NCBI GenBank assembly: GCA_040876345.1
Contig: JBBDPM010000001.1
Span: forward strand, 270,313 to 334,312
DNA length: 64,000 bases
Direction: 5' to 3'
DNA from: Candidatus Woykebacteria bacterium
GTDB lineage: Bacteria > Patescibacteriota > Microgenomatia > Woykebacterales > RBG-16-39-9b
The position numbers and the translations under genes were made by a program. The notes below the pieces were generated by a model. That model had not been told where the DNA came from and did not search any database. It was given only the letters and a program-made list of their open reading frames with translations. This document shows positions 10,588 through 51,415 of the stretch, in pieces; the stretch's first letter is position 1, and each line of letters begins with the position of its first letter.

Positions 10588-11340
10588 ATGCATACTTTCT
10601 CGACCGAGGGGATTATCTTAAAAAGGATTGATTTTGGTGAAGCAGATAGATTAGTTACTGTTTTTACAAAAAACAAAGGTAAAATTACAAGCTTAGCCAA
10701 AGGAATTCGCAGGATTGAGTCAAGGAGATCCGGTAATGTGGATCTTCTGAATAGAGTGAAACTTTTTTTTGCCCAGAGTAAGGGCTTGCCGATTCTAACT
10801 GAAGCTGAAGCTGTCGATACCTATAAAAACCTAAAAAAAGATTTAGGAAGGGTTGGGCAAGCTTATTATTTAATTGAGTTAACAGATCAATTTTTTCATG
10901 ATCAACAGGAAAATTTTAGAGTTTACGATTTGCTATCCGAGTCGTTGAGCTTGTTAGATAGGGGAGAAAGGGTTGAGAGTATAATTCGCGCGTTTGAGCT
11001 TAAGATTCTTTCTCTGGCTGGCTACAAGCCACAGCTTTTTAGTTGTCCCAAGTGTCGTGTAAGGATTTCTCAAACAGAAAATTTTCTCAGTCCCGAGGCA
11101 GGTGGAGTTTTGGATAAATCTTGTGCTAATGGGTCGGCTATTGTGAAGTCAATATCACCGCAGATAATTAAGCTAATGCGTTTTTCGAATGATAGGCCGT
11201 TGGAGGAGTCTTTAAGAGTGAGTGTGCCGGGCAGCTTGATGGGCGATTTTAAGGCTCATATGAGGTTTTATTTGGAGTATATTTTGGAGAAACAGCTTTC
11301 CTCGACTAATTTTGCGGAGAAAATAAATGGGTTGGGGTAG
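10588..11340 (+). CDS. recO: DNA repair protein RecO
   Basis: N-terminal OB-fold motif EGIILKRIDFGEADRLVTVFTKNKGKI, C-terminal CxxC zinc motif (SCPKCRVRIS). Confidence 0.8.
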   Translation: MHTFSTEGIILKRIDFGEADRLVTVFTKNKGKITSLAKGIRRIESRRSGNVDLLNRVKLFFAQSKGLPILTEAEAVDTYKNLKKDLGRVGQAYYLIELTDQFFHDQQENFRVYDLLSESLSLLDRGERVESIIRAFELKILSLAGYKPQLFSCPKCRVRISQTENFLSPEAGGVLDKSCANGSAIVKSISPQIIKLMRFSNDRPLEESLRVSVPGSLMGDFKAHMRFYLEYILEKQLSSTNFAEKINGLG

Positions 11341-11427
11341 CAGCAGGCCGCTTGTGTTTATTGACGAGCCTGCTGCTTTCGACCCCACCTCCTTTCCAGC
11401 GCCCGCTTGCTTAAGACTGGGGCTTGT

Positions 11428-11598
11428 TTAGCCCAGCTGGACGGGTTTTTTACCACCAAGTTCCTCGCGGAGGATCTCTAGTTCCTCCGGGGCTTCGATG
11501 CCGAGCTTAACTCGACGTTTGCCGATCGAGAGTACCTTGATGAAGATGCGCCCGTCGATCCAGAACCCTTCTTGGAGTTTTCGATCCAGCACGATCAT
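11428..11598 (-). CDS. csrA: carbon storage regulator CsrA-like RNA-binding protein (56 aa)
   Basis: Not in ORF track (short). Translation MIVLDRKLQEGFWIDGRIFIKVLSIGKRRVKLGIEAPEELEILREELGGKKPVQLG matches CsrA fold pattern (MLxLxRKxxExxxIxxxIxIxVLxIxGxxVxLGIxAPxExxIxRxEL); GGAGG SD 6 nt upstream; GC clearly higher than flanks. Confidence 0.7.
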   Translation of the reverse strand: MIVLDRKLQEGFWIDGRIFIKVLSIGKRRVKLGIEAPEELEILREELGGKKPVQLG

Positions 11599-11625
11599 GT
11601 TAGGCCTCCCTCTCCTCAGTTATTT

Positions 11626-11685
11626 ACGGCTATCCTGGCCGTATTCAGGGATGTGTATTCTATACTAAACTAGCCTAGATTGCAA
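11626..11685 (-). promoter_or_regulatory. csrA promoter (TTGCAA-17-TAGAAT) and leader hairpin with GGA in loop
   Basis: minus-strand -35 TTGCAA (11680-11685), -10 TAGAAT (11657-11662), leader hairpin ACGGC-CAGGAUA-GCCGU (11626-11642) and GGA-containing SD: resembles CsrA autoregulatory sites. Confidence 0.4.
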
Positions 11686-25084: not shown

Positions 25085-25723
25085 ATGGATGAGACTGGCC
25101 AACCGGTCCAAAACACAGCAAACCCCAACCCAAAACCCGTTTCCTGGCCGAGAGTTTTGTTAACTGTATTAATAATAGTACTGGTGGTGAGTATATTAGC
25201 CGGTGGCTATTGGTATTTTGTACTCAACAAGCCGTCAGAGACGGTCGATACCAGCCCAATCAAAGTCTCCACTCAATCTTCAAAAAAAGCAACAGAATCT
25301 TCAAAAAAAGCCACTTCTTCTGCCAAAAAAGACGAAACTGCTAACTGGAAGGTTTACGAAGAAAAACAACTTGGATTTTTAATTAAATATCCTGGGACTT
25401 GGTCGATAAAAGCTGGGACGAGCGGTAGCGTTAGAGTCGTAAAACTAAACAAAGATCGGGAATCAATTGAAATTTATGAGGATGGAGGCATAGAAGGCGG
25501 AACTGACACGACAGTAGAACTCGCTGTTGGTTCCCACAAGCTAGAGTTCTGGGTATTCGACTCAGAGACAAACAGTCAAATTACATATGTTAATAGTAGT
25601 CCGAGATTAGAATCCAGGACATCTTCGTTGCTATTATTTTACATAATTCTTGACAGAAAAACACACGATCAGAGTTTAGCAGAGGTTAAAAAGATCCTTT
25701 CAACCTTCAAACTCCTGGACTAA
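25085..25723 (+). CDS. paralog-family member 1: Pro/Gln-rich N-tail, signal-anchor TM, S/T/K-rich linker, globular domain ending ILSTFKLLD
   Basis: shares N-terminal block (VSWPR/K-TM-WYFVLNKxS-TVDTxPIKVST-KKATESSKKATSS) and C-terminal STFKFLD motif with ORFs at 35400, 42280, 43866 and decayed copy 31283-32050. Confidence 0.5.
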   Translation: MDETGQPVQNTANPNPKPVSWPRVLLTVLIIVLVVSILAGGYWYFVLNKPSETVDTSPIKVSTQSSKKATESSKKATSSAKKDETANWKVYEEKQLGFLIKYPGTWSIKAGTSGSVRVVKLNKDRESIEIYEDGGIEGGTDTTVELAVGSHKLEFWVFDSETNSQITYVNSSPRLESRTSSLLLFYIILDRKTHDQSLAEVKKILSTFKLLD

Positions 25724-31282: not shown

Positions 31283-32050
31283 CTAGTCGAGGAATTTGAG
31301 GGTTGATACTATGGAATCTAGAGCTGGTTCAAACTGACCCCTAACAAAATATGCTGTGAAAATGAAAACAGTAGTTTTGTTTGCTTCAATATAGATAGAT
31401 ACTGTCCTAAGTTCTTTTAAATAACCTTGATAACTTATATTTTTATAAACAGTAAAATTCCCCAGTTTCTTTGATTCCAAGTCTTCATACGACGAAGGAG
31501 GACAGCAATCTGATCTATTTGATAAGGCAAAATTTTTAAGATTATTATCACCTTTCTTTAAAACCTTGTTGATAGCAATTTTATACTATCCTTCCCTTCA
31601 ATTAATTCTCTTCCAGCAGCATTTTCTGGGTCGTAATTAGTAATATTTGCTGTAGCTTGTCTGTCATAAGCTGTTTTCCCAGACCAACTTTTTGCAGATT
31701 CAATAAACCATTTATTTGGGTACCTCAACTCAAACCCTAGAACTATATCTTTATAAGTCTTCCACCCAGTAGTCTCGTCTTTTTTGGCAGAAGGTGTGGA
31801 AGAGGGTGTAGCTTTTTTCGCGGTCGGGGTAGAGACTTTGATTGGGGTTTGGTCGACAGGTTATGTTGACTTACCTAACACAAAATACCAAAGCCCACCT
31901 CCGATTAATCCGGTAATTATAACTACAACAATTACTATAATAATTATTTTTGACCAAGAAAGTCCTTTCGAAGTCGATACAACTTGGGGAGTTGGTGTCG
32001 AAGGTTAAATCTGTGGTTGTGTTTGAACAGGATCTTCAGGCACTAATTTA
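31283..32050 (-). pseudogene. decayed copy of the STFKFLD paralog family (in-frame TAA near N-term, stop after TM, -1 frameshift mid-gene)
   Basis: minus-strand translation gives ...PEDPVQTQPQI*PSTPTPQVVSTSKGLSWSKIIIIVIVVVIITGLIGGGLWYFVLGKST*PVDQTPIKVSTPTAKKAT...WKTYKDIVLGFELRYPNKW...(frameshift)...FEPALDSIVSTLKFLD*; track ORFs 31283-31480(-) and antisense 31784-32008(+) are fragments/shadows of it. Confidence 0.55.
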
Positions 32051-35399: not shown

Positions 35400-36125
35400 T
35401 TGATGGATAATCCTGTTCAGGCTAGCCAACCACAGTCAAATCAAACACCCTTAAGCCCAACTCAAGCGTCAGTAGCAAAACCAGTTTCTTGGCCAAAAAT
35501 TATTTTAACTGTTTTAGTTATTGCGATTGCTGTTGGATTATTAGGCGGTGGGCTCTGGTATTTTGTTCTAAATAAATCATCAGATACAGTTGACACAACC
35601 CCAATCAAAGTCTCTACCCCATCTGCAAAGAAAGCAACAGAATCTTCAAAAAAAGCCACCTCTTCTACCACAAAAGACGAAATATCTAATTGGGAAACTG
35701 ATGTTGAAAATTTCATGGGATTAAAGTTCAGCTTAAAGTACCCTGCTAAATTCACTATTTACAGGAGTCATAATGCAGATGCCGTTTATACGACCGACGA
35801 AGGTTCCGAGAAGTTTTATGTCGTGACAAACAGAAGTTCGCTCATAACGAATTATGAGAACGGTGATGTTAGCTTATCTGTTTATGTTGAAGATAATCCT
35901 GTCTTGGCTCAAGGGATTAAATATGTGGATGCGGAATTCGCTGGAGTGGAAGCCAAAATGGGTGAGGGAGAGAGTCAAGGCGGTGGAAAAGTAGAGTATT
36001 ACACTAACAACCAACCATCAGCCAAGGGTAAATATGTAACTTTCTCATGCCTTTTTTACCCCTCCACTGATTTAGACCTTAAGAAAATATGTGACTTGAT
36101 GGCCTCAAACTTCAAATTCCTCTGA
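35400..36125 (+). CDS. paralog-family member 2 (ends ...MASNFKFL)
   Basis: N-terminal 90 aa and underlying DNA (tcttcaaaaaaagccac(c/t)tcttct...) nearly identical to member 1; C-terminal FKFL motif. Confidence 0.5.
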   Translation: MMDNPVQASQPQSNQTPLSPTQASVAKPVSWPKIILTVLVIAIAVGLLGGGLWYFVLNKSSDTVDTTPIKVSTPSAKKATESSKKATSSTTKDEISNWETDVENFMGLKFSLKYPAKFTIYRSHNADAVYTTDEGSEKFYVVTNRSSLITNYENGDVSLSVYVEDNPVLAQGIKYVDAEFAGVEAKMGEGESQGGGKVEYYTNNQPSAKGKYVTFSCLFYPSTDLDLKKICDLMASNFKFL

Positions 36126-41562: not shown

Positions 41563-41571
41563 GTTTCAGGT

Positions 41572-42112
41572 TCACCACCTCGCAGATACTCTCTTTTTTA
41601 ATTTTTCGTAAAAGTTTTCTCTTAGTCCAATCATTATCACAACCGCAGAGTTTAGCTTAGGATAAATCACGTAAGCTACTCTATATTGCTTACCTTGATA
41701 AGAAAAGTGGGTAGGAGCGATAAACAGAAAGGCCACCTTTTAAAGGCTCTCCAACCGACGGGTCTTCAGAAATAGTCTTTAGTGATTGTAAGACTTTGTC
41801 TTTAAATTGCTTATCTAATTTGCGAAAATCCTTTTGAGCGGCTTTTTCTAGATTGATTGAGTACATTTACACTTCTTGGAGAAGTTTTTCGATGGGAACG
41901 GTGTCTGCAAGGGGGTCTTTTTTGGTAAGTAGAGAACGAACTCTAGACTTTAATTCGTCACTAAAATCTCTGTCAGAAAGAATATCCAACCCTTCGGCTT
42001 CCTGAGGCGAAAGTTTCTTAAACCTCTCCCAAGGCACAAGAACATACGAAGGCTTACCCTACTTATCAAGGACGATTTTTGATTTTGTAGCTAGAGTTGT
42101 TTTATAAGTCAT
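41572..42112 (-). pseudogene. decayed type II toxin-antitoxin pair: antitoxin with in-frame TAG (41867-42112) plus RelE/ParE-family toxin with +1 frameshift (41572-41866)
   Basis: minus-strand translations MTYKTTLATKSKIVLDK*GKPSYVLVPWERFKKLSPQEAEGL... and MYSINLEKAAQKDFRKLDKQFKDKVLQSLKTISEDPSVGEPLKGGLSVYRSY..(shift)..GKQYRVAYVIYPKLNSAVVIMIGLRENFY (RelE/ParE core). Confidence 0.5.
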
Positions 42113-42203
42113 ACTAAAATTATAATATCATAGTATAAAATTTTAAGAAAGAACAACATTGTGTGACGCGAACAATGTATCCTGACCATATTGAAATTAA
42201 GGC

Positions 42204-42219
42204 TTGACTGGGGGGGGGG
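42204..42219 (+). repeat. TTGACT followed by G10 homopolymeric tract in promoter region of paralog 3
   Basis: gggggggggg at 42210-42219 directly abutting a -35-like hexamer. Confidence 0.6.
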
Positions 42220-42279
42220 CAGGACGAATTAAAATTAAAACAGTTGATTATTTACTAGAACTTTTTATATACTAAAACT

Positions 42280-42999
42280 ATGCCAGAGAACACTAACCAA
42301 CCAACACCAACTCAACCAGCATCACAAGGAATTAATTGGAAAAATATCCTTATTGGAGTAATTATTGGTGCAGTTCTAGTTGGTGGTGGAGGCTTTCTAG
42401 TTTACAACGCCTATCAACCCAGGAAAGAAGAGCTAATCCAAACTACCACAACTCCAACAAAAACAGCGATGCCATCTGCTTCAAAAGATAAGTCTGGTAA
42501 GTGTGATACCTATTCAAATAAGGTTGTGGGAGTAGAATTTAAATGCCCAGAGGGCTGGTTTTTTGAAGAAACTACGATACATGAAGTTAAAACAGTAGGT
42601 CTTTCAGACAAACCTTTTGACTACGAAGGTAAAGATAATATTATGATTACTATAAATACTGGAGATAATAGCAATGACGCTAAATTCAGATTCAGGGACG
42701 TGGAAGAATTAAAAATTGGTGCAACGGAGACACGCAAACCAGATTCGGATAACCCGTACACAGCAAAGACAACTAGATTGGCGGACGTCGAACTTGGTGG
42801 GGTTAAAGGTTTGCAATTTGAAGAAATTGATATTCCAGTGAGTAAGAAGGAGGATATTACACCATACAATTTATACATCTACTTTAAGCGAAACGACGAA
42901 TACGGAGACATCAGTTTAACAGTTAGAGGTGAAACTACTTATAAATCTGCAAAGGAAATACTGAAAGAAATTCTTTCAACCTTCAAATTCCTCGACTAA
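42280..42999 (+). CDS. paralog-family member 3 (ends ...ILSTFKFLD)
   Basis: Pro/Thr-rich N-tail, TM (ILIGVIIGAVLVGGGGFLVYNAY), C-terminal domain ending KEILKEILSTFKFLD. Confidence 0.5.
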   Translation: MPENTNQPTPTQPASQGINWKNILIGVIIGAVLVGGGGFLVYNAYQPRKEELIQTTTTPTKTAMPSASKDKSGKCDTYSNKVVGVEFKCPEGWFFEETTIHEVKTVGLSDKPFDYEGKDNIMITINTGDNSNDAKFRFRDVEELKIGATETRKPDSDNPYTAKTTRLADVELGGVKGLQFEEIDIPVSKKEDITPYNLYIYFKRNDEYGDISLTVRGETTYKSAKEILKEILSTFKFLD

Positions 43000-43387
43000 G
43001 CCTTTTAGTTTTGGTGCCAGTCCTGTAACTACGTTTTAGTGGGTTGACTACGTTAATGTTAAGTACTATATTAGAAATAATTAAAGTGATTTCTTAGTAT
43101 TAATTGATATAGCAAGAATAAGACGAATTAGATATTCCAGCGTTTATTCGGCAAAGATAGCCCCTATAATCTTCCTACAAGTTACTTATCTTCCAAATAA
43201 CATTAATTTAGCCTAAAAACCACGTCGCTTATCGCTTATTGCCCAACATTTTAGTAAATTTGCTTGAAAGACGTATAATAATCCATGACAACAGCGAAAC
43301 CTGTTGGTAAAAGATAGAGATCGAAATTGCGGTAGTCTTGAGGAGGCTTGCTGTCAAGCTTCCGAGCACCTGCGAGGGAGGTGACTT

Positions 43388-43642
43388 GTGTCACGCAGGA
43401 TAATCGTCATAACCGTCTCCAGGGAGTGGTGGGTGATTATTGGATTCATTCTGCTACTCATTGCCTTTCAGATAGGATGCAGCTTCCTAATCGGAAAGGT
43501 GTTTCAAGAGTTGCAGGAACCGCCGCTGGCCATACCAGTTGTGCTGGTGGTAGTAAGCCCCGCACTCACCCTCCTCTTCTACCGGCTTGCTGAAAGGAGG
43601 GCCGATATACAGATCAACCGTTGTACAGAACCCGATTTCTGA
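43388..43642 (+). CDS. hypothetical 84-aa two-TM membrane protein in a GC-rich island
   Basis: GTG start preceded by GGAGG-6nt; two clean hydrophobic helices (WWVIIGFILLLIAFQIGCSFLIG, AIPVVLVVVSPALTLLFY); TATAAT at ~43273 and hairpin leader; GC clearly above flanks. Confidence 0.35.
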   Translation: MSRRIIVITVSREWWVIIGFILLLIAFQIGCSFLIGKVFQELQEPPLAIPVVLVVVSPALTLLFYRLAERRADIQINRCTEPDF

Positions 43643-43670
43643 TCAGCGGCCCAACTAGTAGCGGTGCTAA

Positions 43671-43709
43671 GAGCGTCTTCTTGGTTGAGGACGCTCTTCT
43701 CGCTTTTGG
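43671..43709 (+). terminator. intrinsic terminator (GAGCGTC-loop-GACGCTC + T-rich tail)
   Basis: 7-bp GC-rich stem, 12-nt loop, followed by TTCTCGCTTTTGG. Confidence 0.5.
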
Positions 43710-43865
43710 ATACAGAGTTAGCCTCTAGTTAGGTCGTTGGGTTGACACTTGAGTATTTTCCAGCTATATTTTAAACAATGTCTAAAACTGCTCAAGACCC
43801 GCTTTTTTTAATTTCTTCAAGTAGTTCTGCAAGGTATGTTATCCTAAATTTCACAAGAGAGGAGG

Positions 43866-44198
43866 TTGAAAATTATGGCTGATGCACCAGTTCAGGTGCC
43901 GCAAACACCCCAAGCCCCACAAACACCACCGGTCTCACAAGTTGTTCAGGGAGGTGGTAAGGGTATATCGTGGGGAAAAGTGATACTAACCGTAGTAATT
44001 ATTGTAGTTGTAACGGCTGCTATAGCCGGGGCTTTATGGTATTTTGTATTAAACAAAACTTCGGATAGTGAAGAGTCTTTAGGTAACGTCAGAATAACCA
44101 CCCCCAAGACTACCGCTTCAACAGACTCCGCTACGAAGTCGGCGACAAAATCCGCTGAAGCTACTAAATCTGCTACAAAGTCTGCAAACAGCGAATAG
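43866..44198 (+). CDS. paralog-family member 4, truncated (110 aa: N-tail + TM + S/T/K-rich repeats KSATKSAEATKSATKSA, no globular domain)
   Basis: shares ISWGKVILTVVIIVVV...WYFVLNKTSDSEE block; strong promoter TTGACA-17-TATATT (43742-43770) and GAGGAGG SD. Confidence 0.45.
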   Translation: MKIMADAPVQVPQTPQAPQTPPVSQVVQGGGKGISWGKVILTVVIIVVVTAAIAGALWYFVLNKTSDSEESLGNVRITTPKTTASTDSATKSATKSAEATKSATKSANSE

Positions 44199-44203
44199 TT
44201 TTA

Positions 44204-44313
44204 GGGCCCACAGTTAATTTACATGTTGACAAAGGGGTGGACTTATTTGATAGAATGATGGTGGGCCCCTAAACCAAGTATAACTTGGACCCCTCTAAAG
44301 GAGGCCTTTTTTC
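44204..44313 (+). promoter_or_regulatory. pyrG promoter (TTGACA 44226-31, TAGAAT 44251-56) bracketed by 8-bp inverted repeat GGGCCCAC/GTGGGCCC; predicted transcript starts GGGCCCC
   Basis: seen directly; leader contains CCCCUCU-AAA-GGAGG hairpin + U6 upstream of ATG. Confidence 0.4.
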
Positions 44314-45942
44314 ATGGCAAAAAAAGAAACTAAGTACATATTCGTTAGTGGTGGAGTTATTTCTGGGATTGGTAAAGGTATCACCACTGCTTCCCTGGCT
44401 GCGATTCTACAATCTAAGGGCTTCAAGGTTTCCCCAGTAAAAATTGATATGTATTTAAATGTTGATGCGGGAACTATTCGCCCTCAGGAGCATGGTGAGG
44501 TTTTTGTGACCGATGACGGAGTCGAGACTGACCAGGATTTAGGTCATTACGAAAGATTTTTGAATACACCCTTGAGATCAGCCAATTACATTACAACTGG
44601 TCAAGTCTATCAGGAGGTAATTAATAAAGAACGCTCTTTTGATTATGATGGTGAGGATGTTGAAGCAATACCCCATGTTACCGATGAGATAATTAGGAGA
44701 ATAAAAGAGGCTGGTACTTCTAGAGAAGCAGAGATTGTTTTAATTGAGCTAGGCGGAACTGTAGGTGAGTACCAAAACGCCCTTTTCTTTGAAGCCTCCC
44801 GTATTATGCAGCTTAAAAATTCTGGTACGGTAGCTCATGTGCACGTGGCCTACTTACCAATTCCTAAAAGCCTAGGAGAGATGAAATCTAAACCCGCCCA
44901 GCAATCAGTAAGGAGTTTAAATGAGATGGGAGTGCAGCCAGATATTTTGGTGGGAAGAAGCGAGTTACCAATTGATGAGCGTCGGAAAGAGCGTCTTGCG
45001 CTTTTTTGTAATGTGCAAGCAGAGGATGTGATATCAAATCCGGATGTAGGGACAATTTACGAAGTGCCCCTTATTCTTGAAAACCAACATATTGGTGAGA
45101 GAGTCCTTTCTAAACTAAATCTGGAATCTAAAGAAAAGGACCTTTCCGAATGGAAAGAACTATTAGCTAGGATTGATAACTTAAAAGATGAGGTGAATAT
45201 AGCGATTGTTGGTAAGTACTTTGCAACCGGCAATTTTCAGCTTGAGGATGTTTATGTATCAGTAATTGAGGCAATTAAGCACTCTGCATGGGCAAACTCT
45301 GTTAAACCAATTCTTCATTGGATCGATTCTGAGGATTTCGAGAAGGGTAAGTCTGCTGAGGAAGTTTTGGGCAACATGGATGGAGTAGTTGTACCAGGTG
45401 GTTTTGGAGGCAGAGGCATAGAAGGGGTAATAAAGGCGATCACTTACGCAAGAGAAGCAAAAAAACCCTATCTTGGTCTTTGCTACGGTATGCAACTTGC
45501 CACTATCGAATTTGCCCGCAGGGTTGCTAATATTAGTGAGGCTCATACAACCGAAGTTGATAAAGACTCGACCGATCCTGTGATTAATGTAATGCCAGAG
45601 CAAGAAAAATTGATGATCGGTAAAGAGTATGGTGGTACGATGAGACTTGGATCGTTTCCTTGTAAACTTAAAGACGGTACATTAGCAAGGAAGATTTATG
45701 GTGAAGAGGTGATTCATGAACGCCACCGCCATCGCTACGAATTCAATAATAGTTATAGAGAAAAATTGGAAGAAGCTGGCTTGGTAATTTCTGGAACTAG
45801 TTTGAACGGAAAATTAGTGGAAATGATTGAGCTATCTAACCACCCTTTCTTTGTTGGTACCCAATTTCACCCCGAATTTAAATCACGACCTTTACAGCCT
45901 CACCCAATCTATCTTTCTTTTATAGAAGCCTGTAAGAAATAA
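44314..45942 (+). CDS. pyrG: CTP synthase
   Basis: KYIFVSGGVISGIGKGITTAS, GYGMQLA glutaminase Cys motif. Confidence 0.95.
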   Translation: MAKKETKYIFVSGGVISGIGKGITTASLAAILQSKGFKVSPVKIDMYLNVDAGTIRPQEHGEVFVTDDGVETDQDLGHYERFLNTPLRSANYITTGQVYQEVINKERSFDYDGEDVEAIPHVTDEIIRRIKEAGTSREAEIVLIELGGTVGEYQNALFFEASRIMQLKNSGTVAHVHVAYLPIPKSLGEMKSKPAQQSVRSLNEMGVQPDILVGRSELPIDERRKERLALFCNVQAEDVISNPDVGTIYEVPLILENQHIGERVLSKLNLESKEKDLSEWKELLARIDNLKDEVNIAIVGKYFATGNFQLEDVYVSVIEAIKHSAWANSVKPILHWIDSEDFEKGKSAEEVLGNMDGVVVPGGFGGRGIEGVIKAITYAREAKKPYLGLCYGMQLATIEFARRVANISEAHTTEVDKDSTDPVINVMPEQEKLMIGKEYGGTMRLGSFPCKLKDGTLARKIYGEEVIHERHRHRYEFNNSYREKLEEAGLVISGTSLNGKLVEMIELSNHPFFVGTQFHPEFKSRPLQPHPIYLSFIEACKK

Positions 45943-46823: not shown

Positions 46824-46921
46824 AGCTTTAAAAAAAGCTAAATCCCCAGTAAAACTGGGGGAAATTATCTTGGTTTTTCAAACAAAAATACAAATCGCTT
46901 GTTAAGCAGGCGATTTTTTGG
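46824..46921 (+). terminator. three consecutive hairpins after the KGG gene (AGCTTT/AAAGCT; CCCCAG/CTGGGG; AATCGC/GCGATT + T6), the last 20 nt before ileS ATG
   Basis: seen directly. Confidence 0.4.
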
Positions 46922-46937
46922 TTTAATTTACCCTGTT

Positions 46938-49805
46938 ATGTTTAAAGAAGTTTCGTCAAAAGTCGATTTTGCTGACCTGGAAAGAAAAGTCCTTTCTCAT
47001 TGGGACAAGATCTCTCTTAACAAGAAATATCTAGAGAGAAACCAATCGTCGGCGAAGAAATTCTCTTTTCTTGATGGCCCTATAACCGCTAATAACCCGA
47101 TGGGCGTGCACCACGCGTGGGGTAGGTCTTACAAAGATCTGTGGCAGCGTTTTTTCAATATGAAAGGGTTTCGCCAAAGGTTTCAGAATGGCTTTGATGA
47201 GCAGGGACTTTGGATTGAAGTAGAAGTGGAAAAAGAACTTGGTTTAAAAAGTAAGAAGGATATTGAGAATTTAGTACCTGGAAATGTTTTCGAATCGATT
47301 GCTAAGTTTGTAGATCTTTGCAAAGAACGAGTCAAGAAATTTTCGGCCGTTCAAACCGAACAATCTAAACGTTTGGGATACTTCATGGATTGGGAAAATT
47401 CCTATCACACTTCTTCTGATCAAAATAATTACGCCATTTGGCACTATCTAAAAACTGTTCATGAAAAAGGCTGGCTTTATAAGGGCCGCGACTCTGTACC
47501 TTGGTGCCCGCGTTGCGGTACGGCTATTTCTCAACACGAAATTTTAACTGAAGAGTATAAAGAAATAACTCACAAGGCACTTTTTGTAAAGTATCCGGTA
47601 GTTGCTGAGGATTATAGTCTTTTGGTGTGGACAACAACTCCTTGGACCCTTCCTGGTAATGTAGCTGTAGCAATTGATCCAAAAAAAGACTATGCAATTA
47701 CCAAAGACAATCTAGTTGTCATGTCATCCCGAATCCATGCTCTTGGACTAGAGAAAGTAAAAATAATTAAGGGTAAAGATTTAATTGGTAAAAAATATAT
47801 TGGACCCTTTGACCAACTTGAAAGGGTAAAAGAAAGTTTGGAAAGCTTTGGACACATCGTAATAGACGGTAGAGAACTTGTGAATGAGGATGAAGGTACT
47901 GGGCTTGTTCACATTGCTCCAGGTGCCGGAGAAGAAGATTTTAAATTACACAAAGACCAAAACTTACCGCTTATCGAACTTATAGACGAAGAAGCATCTT
48001 ATATTGATAGCTTAGGGGAGTTTTCTGGAAAAAATGCCAAGAAACTCCCTGAATTAATTATTGATTATCTTGATAGAAAAGACGGTGGGAAGTTTCTTTT
48101 TAAGGTGGAGAATTATAAACATCGCTATCCTACCTGCTGGCGGTGCAAGACTGAGCTCGTTTGGAGAGTAGTGGATGAGTGGTACATAGCAATGGACTCA
48201 CCCTCGCGCCAGGATATGGGAAGCAAGCCAAAAACCTATCGGGAGATGATGAAAGAAGTGATTAAAGATATAAATTGGCTTCCGAAGTGGGGATACGATA
48301 GAGAGCTAGATTGGCTGAACAATATGCACGATTGGCTAATTTCCAAGAAGCGCTATTGGGGTTTGGCTTTGCCAATTTGGGAATGTACAAATTGTGGTAG
48401 TTTCGACGTTTTCGGTTCAAAGGAAGATCTGAAAAAAAGAGCGGTTGAGGGTTGGGATAAATTTGAGGGAATATCTCCCCATAGGCCAATAATAGATTTG
48501 GTTAAGATTAAATGTTCCAAGTGTGGCGAGACAGTTTCACGGATTCGAGATGTTGGAAATGTGTGGCTCGATGCTGGAATTGTTTCCTACTCCACGCTGA
48601 AATATTTTGAAGATAAAAATTATTGGCAAGAGTGGTTTCCAGCCGATTTCATCACCGAAAGTTTCCCAGGGCAGTTCAAAAACTGGTTTTATTCGCTGAT
48701 TGCAATGTCTACTGCACTTGAGGCCAAAGCGCCATTCAAAACTCTTTTAGGGCATGGCCAAGTGCGCGACGAGAAAGGTGACGAGATGCACAAGAGCAAG
48801 GGAAATGCGATTTGGTTTGATGAAGCAGCTGAAAAAATGGGCGTGGATGTAATGCGCTGGATTTACTTGACCACAAACCCCGAACACAATGTTAACTTCG
48901 GCTACCATGTGGCAGATGAAGTCCGTCGCCGTTTTTTTCTGATTTTCTGGAACGTTTACGTGTTTTTTGTTACCTATGCCAATATCGATAAATGGGAGCC
49001 TTCGGCAACCGAAAAAGCGGAACTTTCCGATCCGCTAGATCGGTGGATTATTTCTGAGCTGAATCGGTTGATCGATTCTGTTAATAGAAAATTAGAAAAT
49101 TATGATGCGGCTACCTCCTCTCGGGAGATAGAAAAGTTTGTTATCGATCTTTCTACTTGGTATGTAAGGCGAATTCGCGATCGAGTTGGGCCAACAGCTA
49201 AAAATGGGCTGTCGAAGGTAACTACTTACCAGATGCTCTACACTACTCTTACAGCTTTAAGTAAACTTTTGGCGCCTTTTACGCCTTTCATCGCGTACGA
49301 GATTTATAAAAATCTTACTGATGAAGAGTCTGTGCATCTTGCAGACTACCCTGGAGCGGATAAAAGCGCTATTGATAAGGATTTGATTTTAAACATGGAT
49401 CAGGTTCGCAAATTGGCCGAGGTTGGTCACTCTTTGCGTAAAGAAAAAGGGATAAAGTTAAGGCAGCCTTTAGCGGTATTCTTTTATGGGAAAGATATCG
49501 AGAAACTTCCAAAAGAACTCGAAGATGTTTTGGATGCCGAGCTCAATGTTAAAAAAATAGTTTATGACAAAGGTAAAAAACCTTCTTTCGATTTCTATAT
49601 CACGGAAAGTCTCGCTGCTGAGGGTGAGGCAAGAGAGCTTGTTCGGAAAATCCAGGAAGTTCGCAAAGAGTTAGGGTGTAAGATGGATGAGTTCGTGAGT
49701 GTTGAGCTTCCAGATTGGCCAAAAGAATTTGAAGATTATCTAAAAAAAGAAACTCTCGCCAAAAACCTCACTAAAGGCGAAAAAATCCTCGTATCAAAGT
49801 CATAG
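46938..49805 (+). CDS. ileS: isoleucine--tRNA ligase (eukaryote-like type)
   Basis: class I HIGH-like region GPITANNPMGVHHAWGRS...GFDEQGLWIE (cf. IleS GWDCHGLPIE), KMSKS = MHKSKGN; start set at ATG 46938 (track used TTG 46899). Confidence 0.75.
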   Translation: MFKEVSSKVDFADLERKVLSHWDKISLNKKYLERNQSSAKKFSFLDGPITANNPMGVHHAWGRSYKDLWQRFFNMKGFRQRFQNGFDEQGLWIEVEVEKELGLKSKKDIENLVPGNVFESIAKFVDLCKERVKKFSAVQTEQSKRLGYFMDWENSYHTSSDQNNYAIWHYLKTVHEKGWLYKGRDSVPWCPRCGTAISQHEILTEEYKEITHKALFVKYPVVAEDYSLLVWTTTPWTLPGNVAVAIDPKKDYAITKDNLVVMSSRIHALGLEKVKIIKGKDLIGKKYIGPFDQLERVKESLESFGHIVIDGRELVNEDEGTGLVHIAPGAGEEDFKLHKDQNLPLIELIDEEASYIDSLGEFSGKNAKKLPELIIDYLDRKDGGKFLFKVENYKHRYPTCWRCKTELVWRVVDEWYIAMDSPSRQDMGSKPKTYREMMKEVIKDINWLPKWGYDRELDWLNNMHDWLISKKRYWGLALPIWECTNCGSFDVFGSKEDLKKRAVEGWDKFEGISPHRPIIDLVKIKCSKCGETVSRIRDVGNVWLDAGIVSYSTLKYFEDKNYWQEWFPADFITESFPGQFKNWFYSLIAMSTALEAKAPFKTLLGHGQVRDEKGDEMHKSKGNAIWFDEAAEKMGVDVMRWIYLTTNPEHNVNFGYHVADEVRRRFFLIFWNVYVFFVTYANIDKWEPSATEKAELSDPLDRWIISELNRLIDSVNRKLENYDAATSSREIEKFVIDLSTWYVRRIRDRVGPTAKNGLSKVTTYQMLYTTLTALSKLLAPFTPFIAYEIYKNLTDEESVHLADYPGADKSAIDKDLILNMDQVRKLAEVGHSLRKEKGIKLRQPLAVFFYGKDIEKLPKELEDVLDAELNVKKIVYDKGKKPSFDFYITESLAAEGEARELVRKIQEVRKELGCKMDEFVSVELPDWPKEFEDYLKKETLAKNLTKGEKILVSKS

Positions 49806-49933
49806 TTGAACTTATCACCACATTGTTATAACATTTCCACAACACTCAATCTTTTGTTATCGGTGGGAAAGGAGGATGGAAAACCAAGCCGATAATCCAG
49901 TAGGGTAACATCGCACGGAAGTGAAAGGAACTT

Positions 49934-50218
49934 ATGGTAACCGCAACACCTACGCAAGCAAGGTATGGAGGGCTCTCTGCTCCAGCAGTCACGTCTCGGC
50001 CCGGGGTGCCAACGCGTCCCGTTCTGCCTGAGCGTTTCAATGACGCCCGGGAAGCGGCGACCTGTCTGAGGGTGCAAGCGATCGCGAGGGGCATGACCAT
50101 CGATGAGGCCAACCGCATCGACAGGCACTGCAACTGCGGGTCGCGCGAGTACGCCATACCGGAGTACTGCGAGTACCTGGGGATCAAGGAGGCCCTGGTC
50201 TACCAGCGCATCGGGTGA
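49934..50218 (+). CDS. hypothetical 94-aa Cys-containing protein in GC-rich island
   Basis: AAAGGA-5nt-ATG RBS; promoter TTGAAC...TGtTATAAC at 49806-49836; terminator-like hairpin CACACC-GAT-GGTGTG at ~50257-50271; GC ~65% vs ~38% flanks; overlapping antisense ORFs are artefacts of high GC. Confidence 0.3.
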   Translation: MVTATPTQARYGGLSAPAVTSRPGVPTRPVLPERFNDAREAATCLRVQAIARGMTIDEANRIDRHCNCGSREYAIPEYCEYLGIKEALVYQRIG

Positions 50219-50332
50219 TAACGCAAGTAACCGGGTCGCGCTGACGCCACCAGTACCACGAACCCACCCCAAAGGATCACACCGATGGTGTGGGCTTCAC
50301 ACTTTCTTGGCTCACCTGTTAAAATACTCTTC

Positions 50333-51415
50333 ATGCGCTTTTTTCAAGGAATCGATTGGATACTATTCTTCCCAATGCTTTTCTTAACCTCGCTTGGGAT
50401 TTTAATGATTTACAGCACTTCAATTGAAGCAAATGGTGTTGATTATACATTTGTTTCCCGCCAGACCATATACCTCTTGCTTGGCCTTCTTATCTTTTTT
50501 ATCGTTTCAAGGATAGACTACAAACTTATTTCTAGTTTTTCTTATTTAATGTACGCTCTGGTCATAGCCCTTTTGTTGACCACTTTTTTCTACGGCGAAA
50601 TTACTCGGGGCTCAAGAAGATGGATAGATTTAGGTATTATTACTATCCAAGCTTCTGAGGTGGCTAAACCGGTAATTATCCTTACCCTCTCCTCCTTTTT
50701 TTCAAGATTTTCTCCAAAAGATTTAAAAAATGTTATAGTTTCTTTTTTGATCGTGGCGGTACCGGCAGCTTTAGTATTTATCCAACCTGATTTGGGAAAT
50801 GCGGTAATAATCATGTCACTTTGGGCCGTTTTGGTTTTTGGTGCGGGTGTCAAGATCCTCCATGCGGCTTCACTAGTATTTATAGCCTTAGTTCTTTTGC
50901 CCTTGTCTTGGTTTTTCTTGGAAGATTATCAAAAAGAGAGGCTACTGACTTTCCTTAGCCCGGAAAGGGATCCTCATGGGTCTGGTTACAACCTTGTTCA
51001 ATCAATAATCGCAGTTGGTAGTGGTGGTTTAAAGGGAAGAGGTTTCGGGAGGGGGACACAGAGCCATTTAAATTTCCTACCTGAGCAAAAGACTGATTTC
51101 ATCTTTGCCACCACAGCTGAGGAACTGGGATTTTTTGGAGTTAGTATTATATTAGGTGCCTTTGGTTTTATAATTTATCGAACTTTGGTTGCAGTTAACA
51201 AGGCAGCCGATATTCAGGGTTCTATAATTTCTCTGGGGGTTGCTGCTATGATTGCCATACACCTTTTTATAAATATTGGTATGAATATAGGAATTTTTCC
51301 GGTTACTGGTATCACGCTTCCACTTATTTCTTTTGGCGGCAGCTCTCTAATATCAGTAATGTTTAGTTTGGGGCTTGTGAACTCAGTTTCTTCTTTTTCA
51401 AAAAAATCTCACTAG
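50333..51415 (+). CDS. rodA: SEDS-family peptidoglycan glycosyltransferase RodA (second SEDS paralog)
   Basis: 10 TM, RGxGxGTQSHLNFLPE, PLISFGGSS motifs; start likely ATG 50333 (track 50285 reads through GC island edge). Confidence 0.8.
   Translation: MRFFQGIDWILFFPMLFLTSLGILMIYSTSIEANGVDYTFVSRQTIYLLLGLLIFFIVSRIDYKLISSFSYLMYALVIALLLTTFFYGEITRGSRRWIDLGIITIQASEVAKPVIILTLSSFFSRFSPKDLKNVIVSFLIVAVPAALVFIQPDLGNAVIIMSLWAVLVFGAGVKILHAASLVFIALVLLPLSWFFLEDYQKERLLTFLSPERDPHGSGYNLVQSIIAVGSGGLKGRGFGRGTQSHLNFLPEQKTDFIFATTAEELGFFGVSIILGAFGFIIYRTLVAVNKAADIQGSIISLGVAAMIAIHLFINIGMNIGIFPVTGITLPLISFGGSSLISVMFSLGLVNSVSSFSKKSH

Follow-up and report, generated by a model that had tools for sequence, protein, structure and literature searches.

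A probable laterally acquired gene for a small two-transmembrane-helix protein in the ftsZ-pyrG interval of a Candidatus Woykebacteria genome

Class II holins (e.g., S21 of phage 21) are proteins of 65-95 amino acids (aa) with two transmembrane (TM) domains, both termini in the cytoplasm (N-in/C-in), and a charged C-terminus. Type I toxins such as Hok, TisB, and Fst are shorter, at <60 aa, with one TM helix and an overlapping or adjacent antisense RNA gene, and phage morons, known from lambdoid phages, are single extra prophage genes with their own promoter and terminator and a composition unlike that of their neighbours. Here we describe a GC-rich island in the genome of a Candidatus Woykebacteria bacterium, located in a 64,000-nucleotide (nt) stretch of contig JBBDPM010000001.1 (this whole stretch is referred to as the window), together with the 84-aa open reading frame (ORF) that the island contains, ORF84. 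A first-pass annotation of the same DNA had proposed a small two-TM gene followed by a terminator and, as an alternative, a structured RNA. We consider it probable that the island represents a self-contained gene that was acquired laterally and encodes a small membrane protein with two TM helices. The features of the locus are as follows.

43325-43715, no strand assigned: GC-rich insert, taken as foreign DNA (GC profile, and absence in the relatives L082, L085/L086, and L001)
43274-43279, plus strand: TATAAT, possible -10 element, in AT-rich host-type DNA outside the GC-rich part (sequence)
43289-43306, plus strand: leader hairpin CAACAG-CGAAAC-CTGTTG, 6 bp, -4.7 kcal/mol, upstream of the GC-rich part
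43342-43364, plus strand: 9-bp hairpin of the 5' untranslated region (5'-UTR), GGAGGCUUG-CUGU-CAAGCUUCC, -13.2 kcal/mol
43376-43381, plus strand: Shine-Dalgarno site GGGAGG, 6 nt before the GTG at 43388
43388-43642, plus strand: ORF84, GTG-initiated coding sequence for a two-TM protein of 84 aa (ORF list, periodicity, hydropathy, codon adaptation index, AlphaFold2)
43669-43708, plus strand: intrinsic terminator with a 12-bp stem, 6-nt loop, and the tail CTCGCTTTTG, -19.7 kcal/mol (terminator scan)

ORF84 has the statistics of a protein-coding membrane gene

The distribution of bases over the three codon positions of ORF84 gave a chi2 of 27.6, a value reached by none of 400 ORFs of at least 75 codons taken from dinucleotide shuffles (0/400; mean 6.5, maximum 18.8); thymine occupies 39 of the 84 second codon positions as compared to 14 and 13 at the first and third positions, respectively. 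For comparison, the same statistic was approximately 5 for Escherichia coli rnpB, 32 for csrA, the gene of another GC-rich island in the window, and 47 for a neighbouring gene of 110 aa. The length of ORF84 by itself means little, because 13% of the island shuffles produce an ORF of 84 aa or longer; an ORF of this length that also contains two 19-residue windows with a Kyte-Doolittle hydropathy of at least 1.6, as ORF84 does, was found in only 1 of 3000 shuffles. GC contents at codon positions 1, 2, and 3 were.55,.38, and.60, so that the third position (GC3) is the highest, a pattern expected for a gene that originates from a genome of about 52% GC and encodes a hydrophobic protein. The codon adaptation index (CAI) of ORF84 was 0.53, as compared to 0.72 +/- 0.017 for host genes. 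Because of its periodicity, TM segments that appear in 1/3000 shuffles, and foreign codon use that resembles that of csrA, ORF84 looks like real coding sequence. An overlapping ORF of 81 aa (43348-43593) was rejected as a gene, as it showed its lowest GC at the third position (.61/.59/.39), lacked hydrophobic segments, and had a composition implausible for a protein. The identical ORF84 was read on three contigs, and the same sequence has already been annotated as [quoted passage not shown] on contig JBBDVF010000004.1 of assembly GCA_040903525.1; the novelty of the ORF is thus low.

The two TM helices named in the first-pass annotation are predicted at approximately residues 14-36 and 47-65, with both termini in the cytoplasm; they were recovered by hydropathy analysis as well as by an AlphaFold2 (AF2) model built without an alignment, in which helices cover residues 12-41 and 48-78 (mean predicted local distance difference test score 69). 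Charged residues follow a positive-inside pattern, with R3, R4, and R12 near the N-terminus, R66, R70, and R71 just past the second helix, and E41 and E44 in the loop; to judge from the sequence, this distribution fits an N-in/C-in hairpin.

All features that the first-pass annotation listed for the island are present in the sequence, though they differ greatly in weight. Among those that carry weight, the ribosome-binding site was placed correctly (GGAGG within GGGAGG at 43376-43381, 6 nt ahead of the GTG at 43388), and sites of this kind are infrequent in the host: in the 20 nt upstream of the 45 ATG-start genes of the whole window, a 4-mer Shine-Dalgarno core was found in 9/45 and GGAGG in 2/45. 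GGGAGG is carried by two GC-rich island genes, ORF84 and csrA, where it is part of AGGGAGG. The start codon of ORF84 lies in the loop and stem of a 5-bp hairpin at 43381-43394 (-7.0 kcal/mol). The terminator, described earlier as a textbook example at 43671-43709, was likewise found to be good; its stem spans 43669-43698 and begins 26 nt past the ORF84 stop codon, with a T run that is short and set back from the stem. On the minus strand, the terminator hairpin has no T run after it.

The upstream signals are less convincing. The TATAAT was reported one base off its actual position (43273-43278 instead of 43274-43279), its -35 position at a spacing of 17 nt reads TTAGTA (3/6 matches), and it was not reported by the promoter scan. 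The hexamer alone carries no weight, because 30 copies occur on the plus strand of the window, and its surroundings are host-like and AT-rich, with a GC content of 0.30-0.36 in a 50-nt profile. The leader hairpin CAACAG-CGAAAC-CTGTTG is real but weak and sits in the same host-type DNA, and the more stable hairpin at 43342-43364, which lies inside the island and appears in both the minimum free energy and the centroid structures, was absent from the first-pass annotation.

Further upstream, a promoter-like TTGACT-17-TATATT with a 10/12 match was observed at 43044-43072 in AT-rich DNA, and some stretches of 43044-43290 can be loosely aligned with the matching intergenic DNA of L085 and L082; this region could represent an ancestral small transcript or a real promoter that drives ORF84. 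In addition, a 10-codon ORF (ATG ACA ACA GCG AAA CCT GTT GGT AAA AGA TAG, 43285-43317) overlaps the weak hairpin and starts 6 nt past the TATAAT, where a transcript from that -10 element would begin. It may be a leaderless mini-ORF, although its position is probably due to chance.

Tests for RNase P RNA and other structured RNAs

In AT-rich genomes, islands of high GC content often turn out to be RNA genes, and the island has a terminator and no protein homologue, which would fit a structured non-coding RNA of an undescribed class with a spurious ORF84. Its fold is also consistent with this reading, as the whole unit, terminator included, folded with a z-score of -3.4 on both strands relative to shuffles, and 43285-43665 without the terminator still gave -2.6 on the plus and -2.1 on the minus strand. 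However, the minus strand thus folds about equally well, and the ORF84 body folds no better than shuffles and within the range of ordinary genes of the window (z -0.96 as compared to 0.02 +/- 0.82 for pieces of host genes); the leader alone gave -1.9. An RNA would also leave the three-base periodicity and the two TM segments unexplained, and relatives do not carry the island. Searches for related DNA in the JGI metagenomes (with a three-motif pattern), phages, plasmids, and IMG/VR found none. Rfam at gathering thresholds identified only a tRNA-Val in the whole window; at E<=10, scans of 43000-43900 (901 nt) and 43280-43680 (401 nt) yielded only a 16-bit chance match to a snoRNA family, and ARAGORN did not find a tmRNA. 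RNase P, tmRNA, 6S RNA, and other Rfam families were excluded on the basis of these scans. A new structured RNA is unlikely, and we give an undescribed class with a spurious ORF84 a very low probability.

The RNA alternative of the first-pass annotation had RNase P as its specific candidate, and the Rfam check that it proposed returned no RNase P, tmRNA, or 6S match. This negative was not taken at face value, because RNase P RNAs of the candidate phyla radiation (CPR) can be very diverged: Lui et al. 2021 (PMC8172020) reported RNase P RNAs below Rfam thresholds in 10 of 35 circularised CPR genomes, often with several helices missing. The families tested were RF00010 (class A) and RF00011 (class B), which have a gathering score of 100 bits, with diverged CPR forms scoring lower; E. 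coli rnpB, used as a control, scored 318.6 bits in the same tool, while the island did not match at E<=10. A sequence like the 3' strand of RNase P helix P4 is indeed present, as the first-pass annotation had noticed. The 10-mer ACAGAACCCG has a single copy in the window, at 43625-43634, where it forms part of the final codons of ORF84, and a highly diverged RNase P RNA that uses it as J2/4-P4 3' strand would also fit the length of about 400 nt and the GC-richness of the island.

To score this resemblance, the best in-order matches to the five RF00010 blocks of highest conservation were compared with those in dinucleotide shuffles. The island reached 27.5, as compared to 19.7 +/- 2.8 in shuffles (p=0.012) and 63.5 for E. 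coli; the four blocks without the 10-mer scored 18.5 versus 16.1 +/- 2.7 (p=0.20). Because these four blocks are at chance level, the excess comes entirely from ACAGAACCCG, which had already been picked. Resemblances found by eye to conserved regions (CR) II, III, and IV of E. coli M1 RNA and the RF00010 consensus were rejected as being at chance level by the block score. A P4-like pairing of GGA[U]AAUCG (43399-43407) with CGAUUUCU (43633-43640), in which a bulged U separates 3 bp from 5 bp, can also be drawn by eye; it is expected by chance in roughly 1 of 10 cases by a rough estimate, and it is shifted by 2 nt relative to ACAGAA. The CR-I motif GAGGAAAGUCC, i.e., the P4 5' strand, is not present in the island, nhmmer with either the RF00010 consensus or rnpB did not pick the island, and a scan of JGI metagenomes for three motifs at the island's spacing gave one chance match, which lies inside a Bacteroidetes-type protein-coding region. 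ORF84 also shows a codon periodicity that rnpB lacks, which is not what a non-coding locus should show, and the locus is an insertion that relatives do not have. The RNase P RNA reading is rejected; even in a highly diverged form, it is extremely improbable.

A probable foreign insertion in a variable interval, and its possible origins

The foreign composition of the island and its absence from relatives are both directly observed. Across the window, GC content is about 0.40 (mean 0.399, standard deviation 0.041, in 300-nt windows), whereas 300-nt windows over 43301-43750 have a GC content of 0.51-0.53 and a 50-nt profile delimits the GC-rich part to 43325-43715, at approximately 0.50-0.62; these profiles bear out the sharp contrast with the flanks described in the first-pass annotation. 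The sequence of the island is not repeated elsewhere in the window.

The island is located between ftsZ and pyrG (44314-45942), which are separated by 2.75 kb (41563-44313) in this genome. The PyrG sequence has its closest matches in Candidatus Woykebacteria and other Patescibacteria. In Woykebacteria RBG_13_40_15, pyrG directly follows ftsZ after 152 nt, and the interval measures 4.7 kb in L082 (318-5000) and 1.8 kb in L085 (3203-5000), two relatives with a PyrG that is 81-82% identical, in which it contains other accessory genes and no GC-rich block. Relatives carry genes for a PIN protein, PsbP_2-like membrane proteins, and DUF2283 in this interval (all of these, and others, in L082). The interval in the window contains, besides the island, a ParE-like toxin pair (41690-42037, minus strand) and two membrane-anchored paralogues. 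The ftsZ-pyrG interval is thus a variable hot spot for accessory genes in Woykebacteria. Because synteny shows the island to be absent between the homologous flanking genes in L082, L085/L086, and L001, we regard it as an insertion. Homology between the window and both L085 and L082 ends with a gene of 239 aa and restarts at approximately 43718 with a conserved CCTCTAGT...TTGACA promoter module ahead of the next paralogous gene, which puts the right junction near 43705-43718; the left junction could not be placed to the base, as intergenic DNA is too diverged between relatives.

The module that follows the island (43718-43800) combines a promoter and a 5'-UTR, consisting of CCTCTAGT, TTGACA-17-TATATTTTAA, and AATGTCTAAAACTGCTCA; it precedes the paralogue copy after the island and is conserved at 4290-4375 of L085 and 2465-2540 of L082. 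The family of N-terminally membrane-anchored proteins to which this copy belongs is repeated in the window (25085-25723, 35400-36125, 42280-42999, 43866-44198, and, on the minus strand, 31284-31968).

ORF84 was found to be a complete orphan. Both a word-indexed search of 5.8 billion clusters and an exhaustive phmmer search of 1.84 billion representatives of approximately 15 billion proteins matched ORF84 to itself only. Profiles from Pfam, NCBIfam, PHROGs, and PADLOC gave no match above curated cut-offs, with PHROGs and PADLOC empty; the best sub-threshold matches were to DUF350 (E 0.098; 13.2 bits against a cut-off of 26) and DidA (E 0.089). Peptide-pattern scans of JGI metagenomes and IMG/VR viral contigs did not yield a relative of ORF84, tblastn and blastn against phage and plasmid records did not match ORF84 or the island, two exact-DNA scans of IMG/VR viral contigs did not match the island, and a Foldseek comparison of the AF2 model with viral structures did not return a match. 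The first-pass annotation had named lack of conservation of the ORF in relatives as an argument against a protein, and lack of conservation is what was found, with no homologue in any search.

The window has two further GC-rich islands, which bear on how the first one is to be read.

About 11340-11680: csrA island, GC 0.51-0.54, with the csrA coding sequence at 11434-11598, minus strand (Pfam CsrA)
49806-50284: third island and the most GC-rich (up to 0.64), which fills the gap between ileS (46899-49805) and ftsW (50285-51415)

The first of these encodes a complete CsrA-like protein, with matches to Pfam CsrA (7e-16), the PHROG "CsrA-like regulator" (3e-10), and the NCBIfam CsrA models. Its codon use is foreign (CAI 0.48; GC at codon positions 1, 2, and 3 of.65,.29, and.65), and csrA has the appearance of a post-transcriptional regulator gene that this CPR genome gained by lateral transfer. 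Because one island is a genuine csrA gene, GC-richness here marks foreign genes and not only RNAs. The csrA and ORF84 islands are alike in being small GC-rich inserts, each with one short gene, a GGGAGG-type Shine-Dalgarno site, and a foreign CAI (0.48 and 0.53, respectively). They differ in that csrA belongs to a well-known family and ORF84 to none, and they share no sequence or end motifs. As ileS and ftsW are only 5-9 nt apart in L082 and L085, the third island represents an insertion of 480 nt. Its best ORF (49934-50218, plus strand, 94 aa, GC3 0.74) had no homologue in a search that did not return the query itself either, and 49806-50284 gave no Rfam match at E<=10 except a chance match to a CRISPR repeat and folded no better than shuffles (z +0.74).

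Two explanations for the islands were considered and rejected. A common mobile element behind all three was not supported, as they have no shared sequence, terminal inverted repeats, or direct repeats. The presence of csrA also led us to consider the ORF84 island as a CsrA-titrating sponge RNA; it contains 11 GGA motifs, as compared to 8.2 +/- 2.1 in shuffles (p=0.13), a count equalled by 11% of 400-nt windows.

Several points weigh against the reading of the island as a working membrane-protein gene. The promoter of ORF84 is weak according to the promoter scan; since no homologue was found, selection on the protein lacks evolutionary support; coding statistics can persist in a foreign gene that has no function in its new host; and the fold of 43285-43665, at z -2.6, is somewhat better than that of shuffles, which still allows to some extent for the leader acting as an RNA. 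The main competing explanation is that the island is an inert piece of recently acquired donor DNA which retains the coding statistics of a donor membrane-protein gene, is unexpressed or functionless in this host, and will decay. Codon use that is unadapted to the host, the orphan status of ORF84, the weak promoter, and the location in a variable hot spot are in line with such a fragment, as are the two other GC-rich insertions in the window, particularly 49806-50284, which has no recognisable gene, homologue, or RNA structure. By contrast, the unit is more complete and tidier than a random fragment, with an intact frame of 84 codons, a start codon that takes the first position available behind a strong Shine-Dalgarno site, and a terminator 26 nt past the stop; the foreign csrA is also a complete gene, and ORF84 is identical on three contigs. 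Taken together, we consider an inert fragment unlikely. The small two-TM gene with terminator proposed in the first-pass annotation is upheld by the periodicity, the TM segments, and the Shine-Dalgarno site, and it is weakened by the promoter, the first hairpin, and the lack of conservation.

A more speculative reading, to which we give little credence, is that ORF84 belongs to a group of GC-rich micro-cassettes, each with a single gene and approximately 350-480 nt long, that stem from an unsampled higher-GC pool, and that it founds a new family of membrane-active accessory proteins. Three such candidates are found in 64 kb (csrA at about 11340-11680, ORF84 at about 43325-43715, and a block with a GC content of 0.63 at 49806-50284), and the genes on either side of at least two of them are direct or near neighbours in relatives. 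Under this reading, at least two of the three would have been wedged between core genes, from a source that could be, for example, a host of these episymbionts or one of their mobile elements, by an undescribed insertion route that would operate without repeats, an integrase, or shared ends.

Taken alone, ORF84 is one more orphan small membrane protein and changes little. The island does point to a hot spot of accessory genes between ftsZ and pyrG in Woykebacteria and, together with csrA, indicates that an RNA gene cannot be reliably predicted from GC-richness and a terminator in this CPR genome, given the csrA gene and the coding statistics of ORF84. Any wider interest is limited to the occurrence of three short GC-rich inserts within 64 kb, a pattern which hints that these reduced genomes take up very short foreign segments with a single gene.

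Proposed function and comparison with known systems

If the island is indeed a laterally acquired gene, a foreign segment of about 390 nt with a higher GC content would have been inserted into the variable ftsZ-pyrG interval, bringing with it one complete gene, from a structured 5'-UTR and a strong Shine-Dalgarno site through 84 codons that begin with GTG to an intrinsic terminator. Transcription would start at one of two sites, the weak TATAAT (43274) or TTGACT-17-TATATT (43044-43072), and ORF84 would then be translated. The predicted product is an integral membrane helical hairpin of two TM helices joined by a short acidic loop on the outside, with arginine-rich N- and C-terminal segments expected to stay in the cytoplasm. 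The protein would act in the membrane, possibly as a small pore-former or depolariser of the holin or toxin type, or as a modulator of a membrane complex.

The first-pass annotation had named membrane-active toxins and regulatory peptides as possible roles. A membrane-damaging role, be it that of a pinholin, an abortive-infection effector, or a type I toxin whose leader blocks translation, would agree with the small size and hydrophobicity of the protein, with its two TM helices, predicted N-in/C-in topology, and charged tail at the C-terminus, with the structured 5' leader, and with a start codon held in a small hairpin. The neighbours in the hot spot are likewise of an accessory type, with a toxin-antitoxin connection in the ParE-like pair (41690-42037) here and the PIN protein in L082. 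However, ORF84 does not match toxin or holin families in PADLOC, PHROGs, or Pfam, no endolysin or other phage gene is adjacent, its 84 aa and two helices exceed the classic type I toxins, and its leader, when folded alone (z -1.9), is unremarkable. No antisense promoter was found within the unit; minus-strand promoter-like sites were absent from 43260-43710, with only weak ones (9/12) at 43755-43795. A toxin-like or holin-like role is thus possible but, as read from the sequence, unsupported beyond size and topology, and we regard it as distinctly improbable.

Among the described systems, class A RNase P RNA (RF00010) shares with the island a 10-nt match to its most conserved block (ACAGAACCCG), a similar length, and relative GC-richness, but the island fails the covariance model, lacks CR-I, is codon-periodic, and is an accessory insertion. 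Class II holins and pinholins are matched by ORF84 in its 84 aa, two TM helices, N-in/C-in topology, and charged tail, as far as prediction goes. They differ from it in that ORF84 has no sequence or fold match, endolysin, spanin, dual-start motif, or phage setting, and its neighbours (ftsZ, the ParE-like pair, the membrane-anchored paralogues, and pyrG) do not form a lysis cassette. With type I toxins, ORF84 has in common its small size, hydrophobicity, structured 5' leader, partly occluded start codon, and a toxin-antitoxin pair in the region, whereas it is longer, has two helices, has no evident antisense promoter or antisense RNA, and matches none of their families. Finally, while phage morons differ from ORF84 in that it is not in a prophage, has no phage genes nearby and no phage homologue, and has a weak promoter that seemingly lies in host DNA, they resemble it in organisation: ORF84 is a single small gene with its own terminator, a possible promoter, and deviant GC content and codon use (GC 0.52 as compared to 0.40), inserted between conserved genes and absent from relatives.

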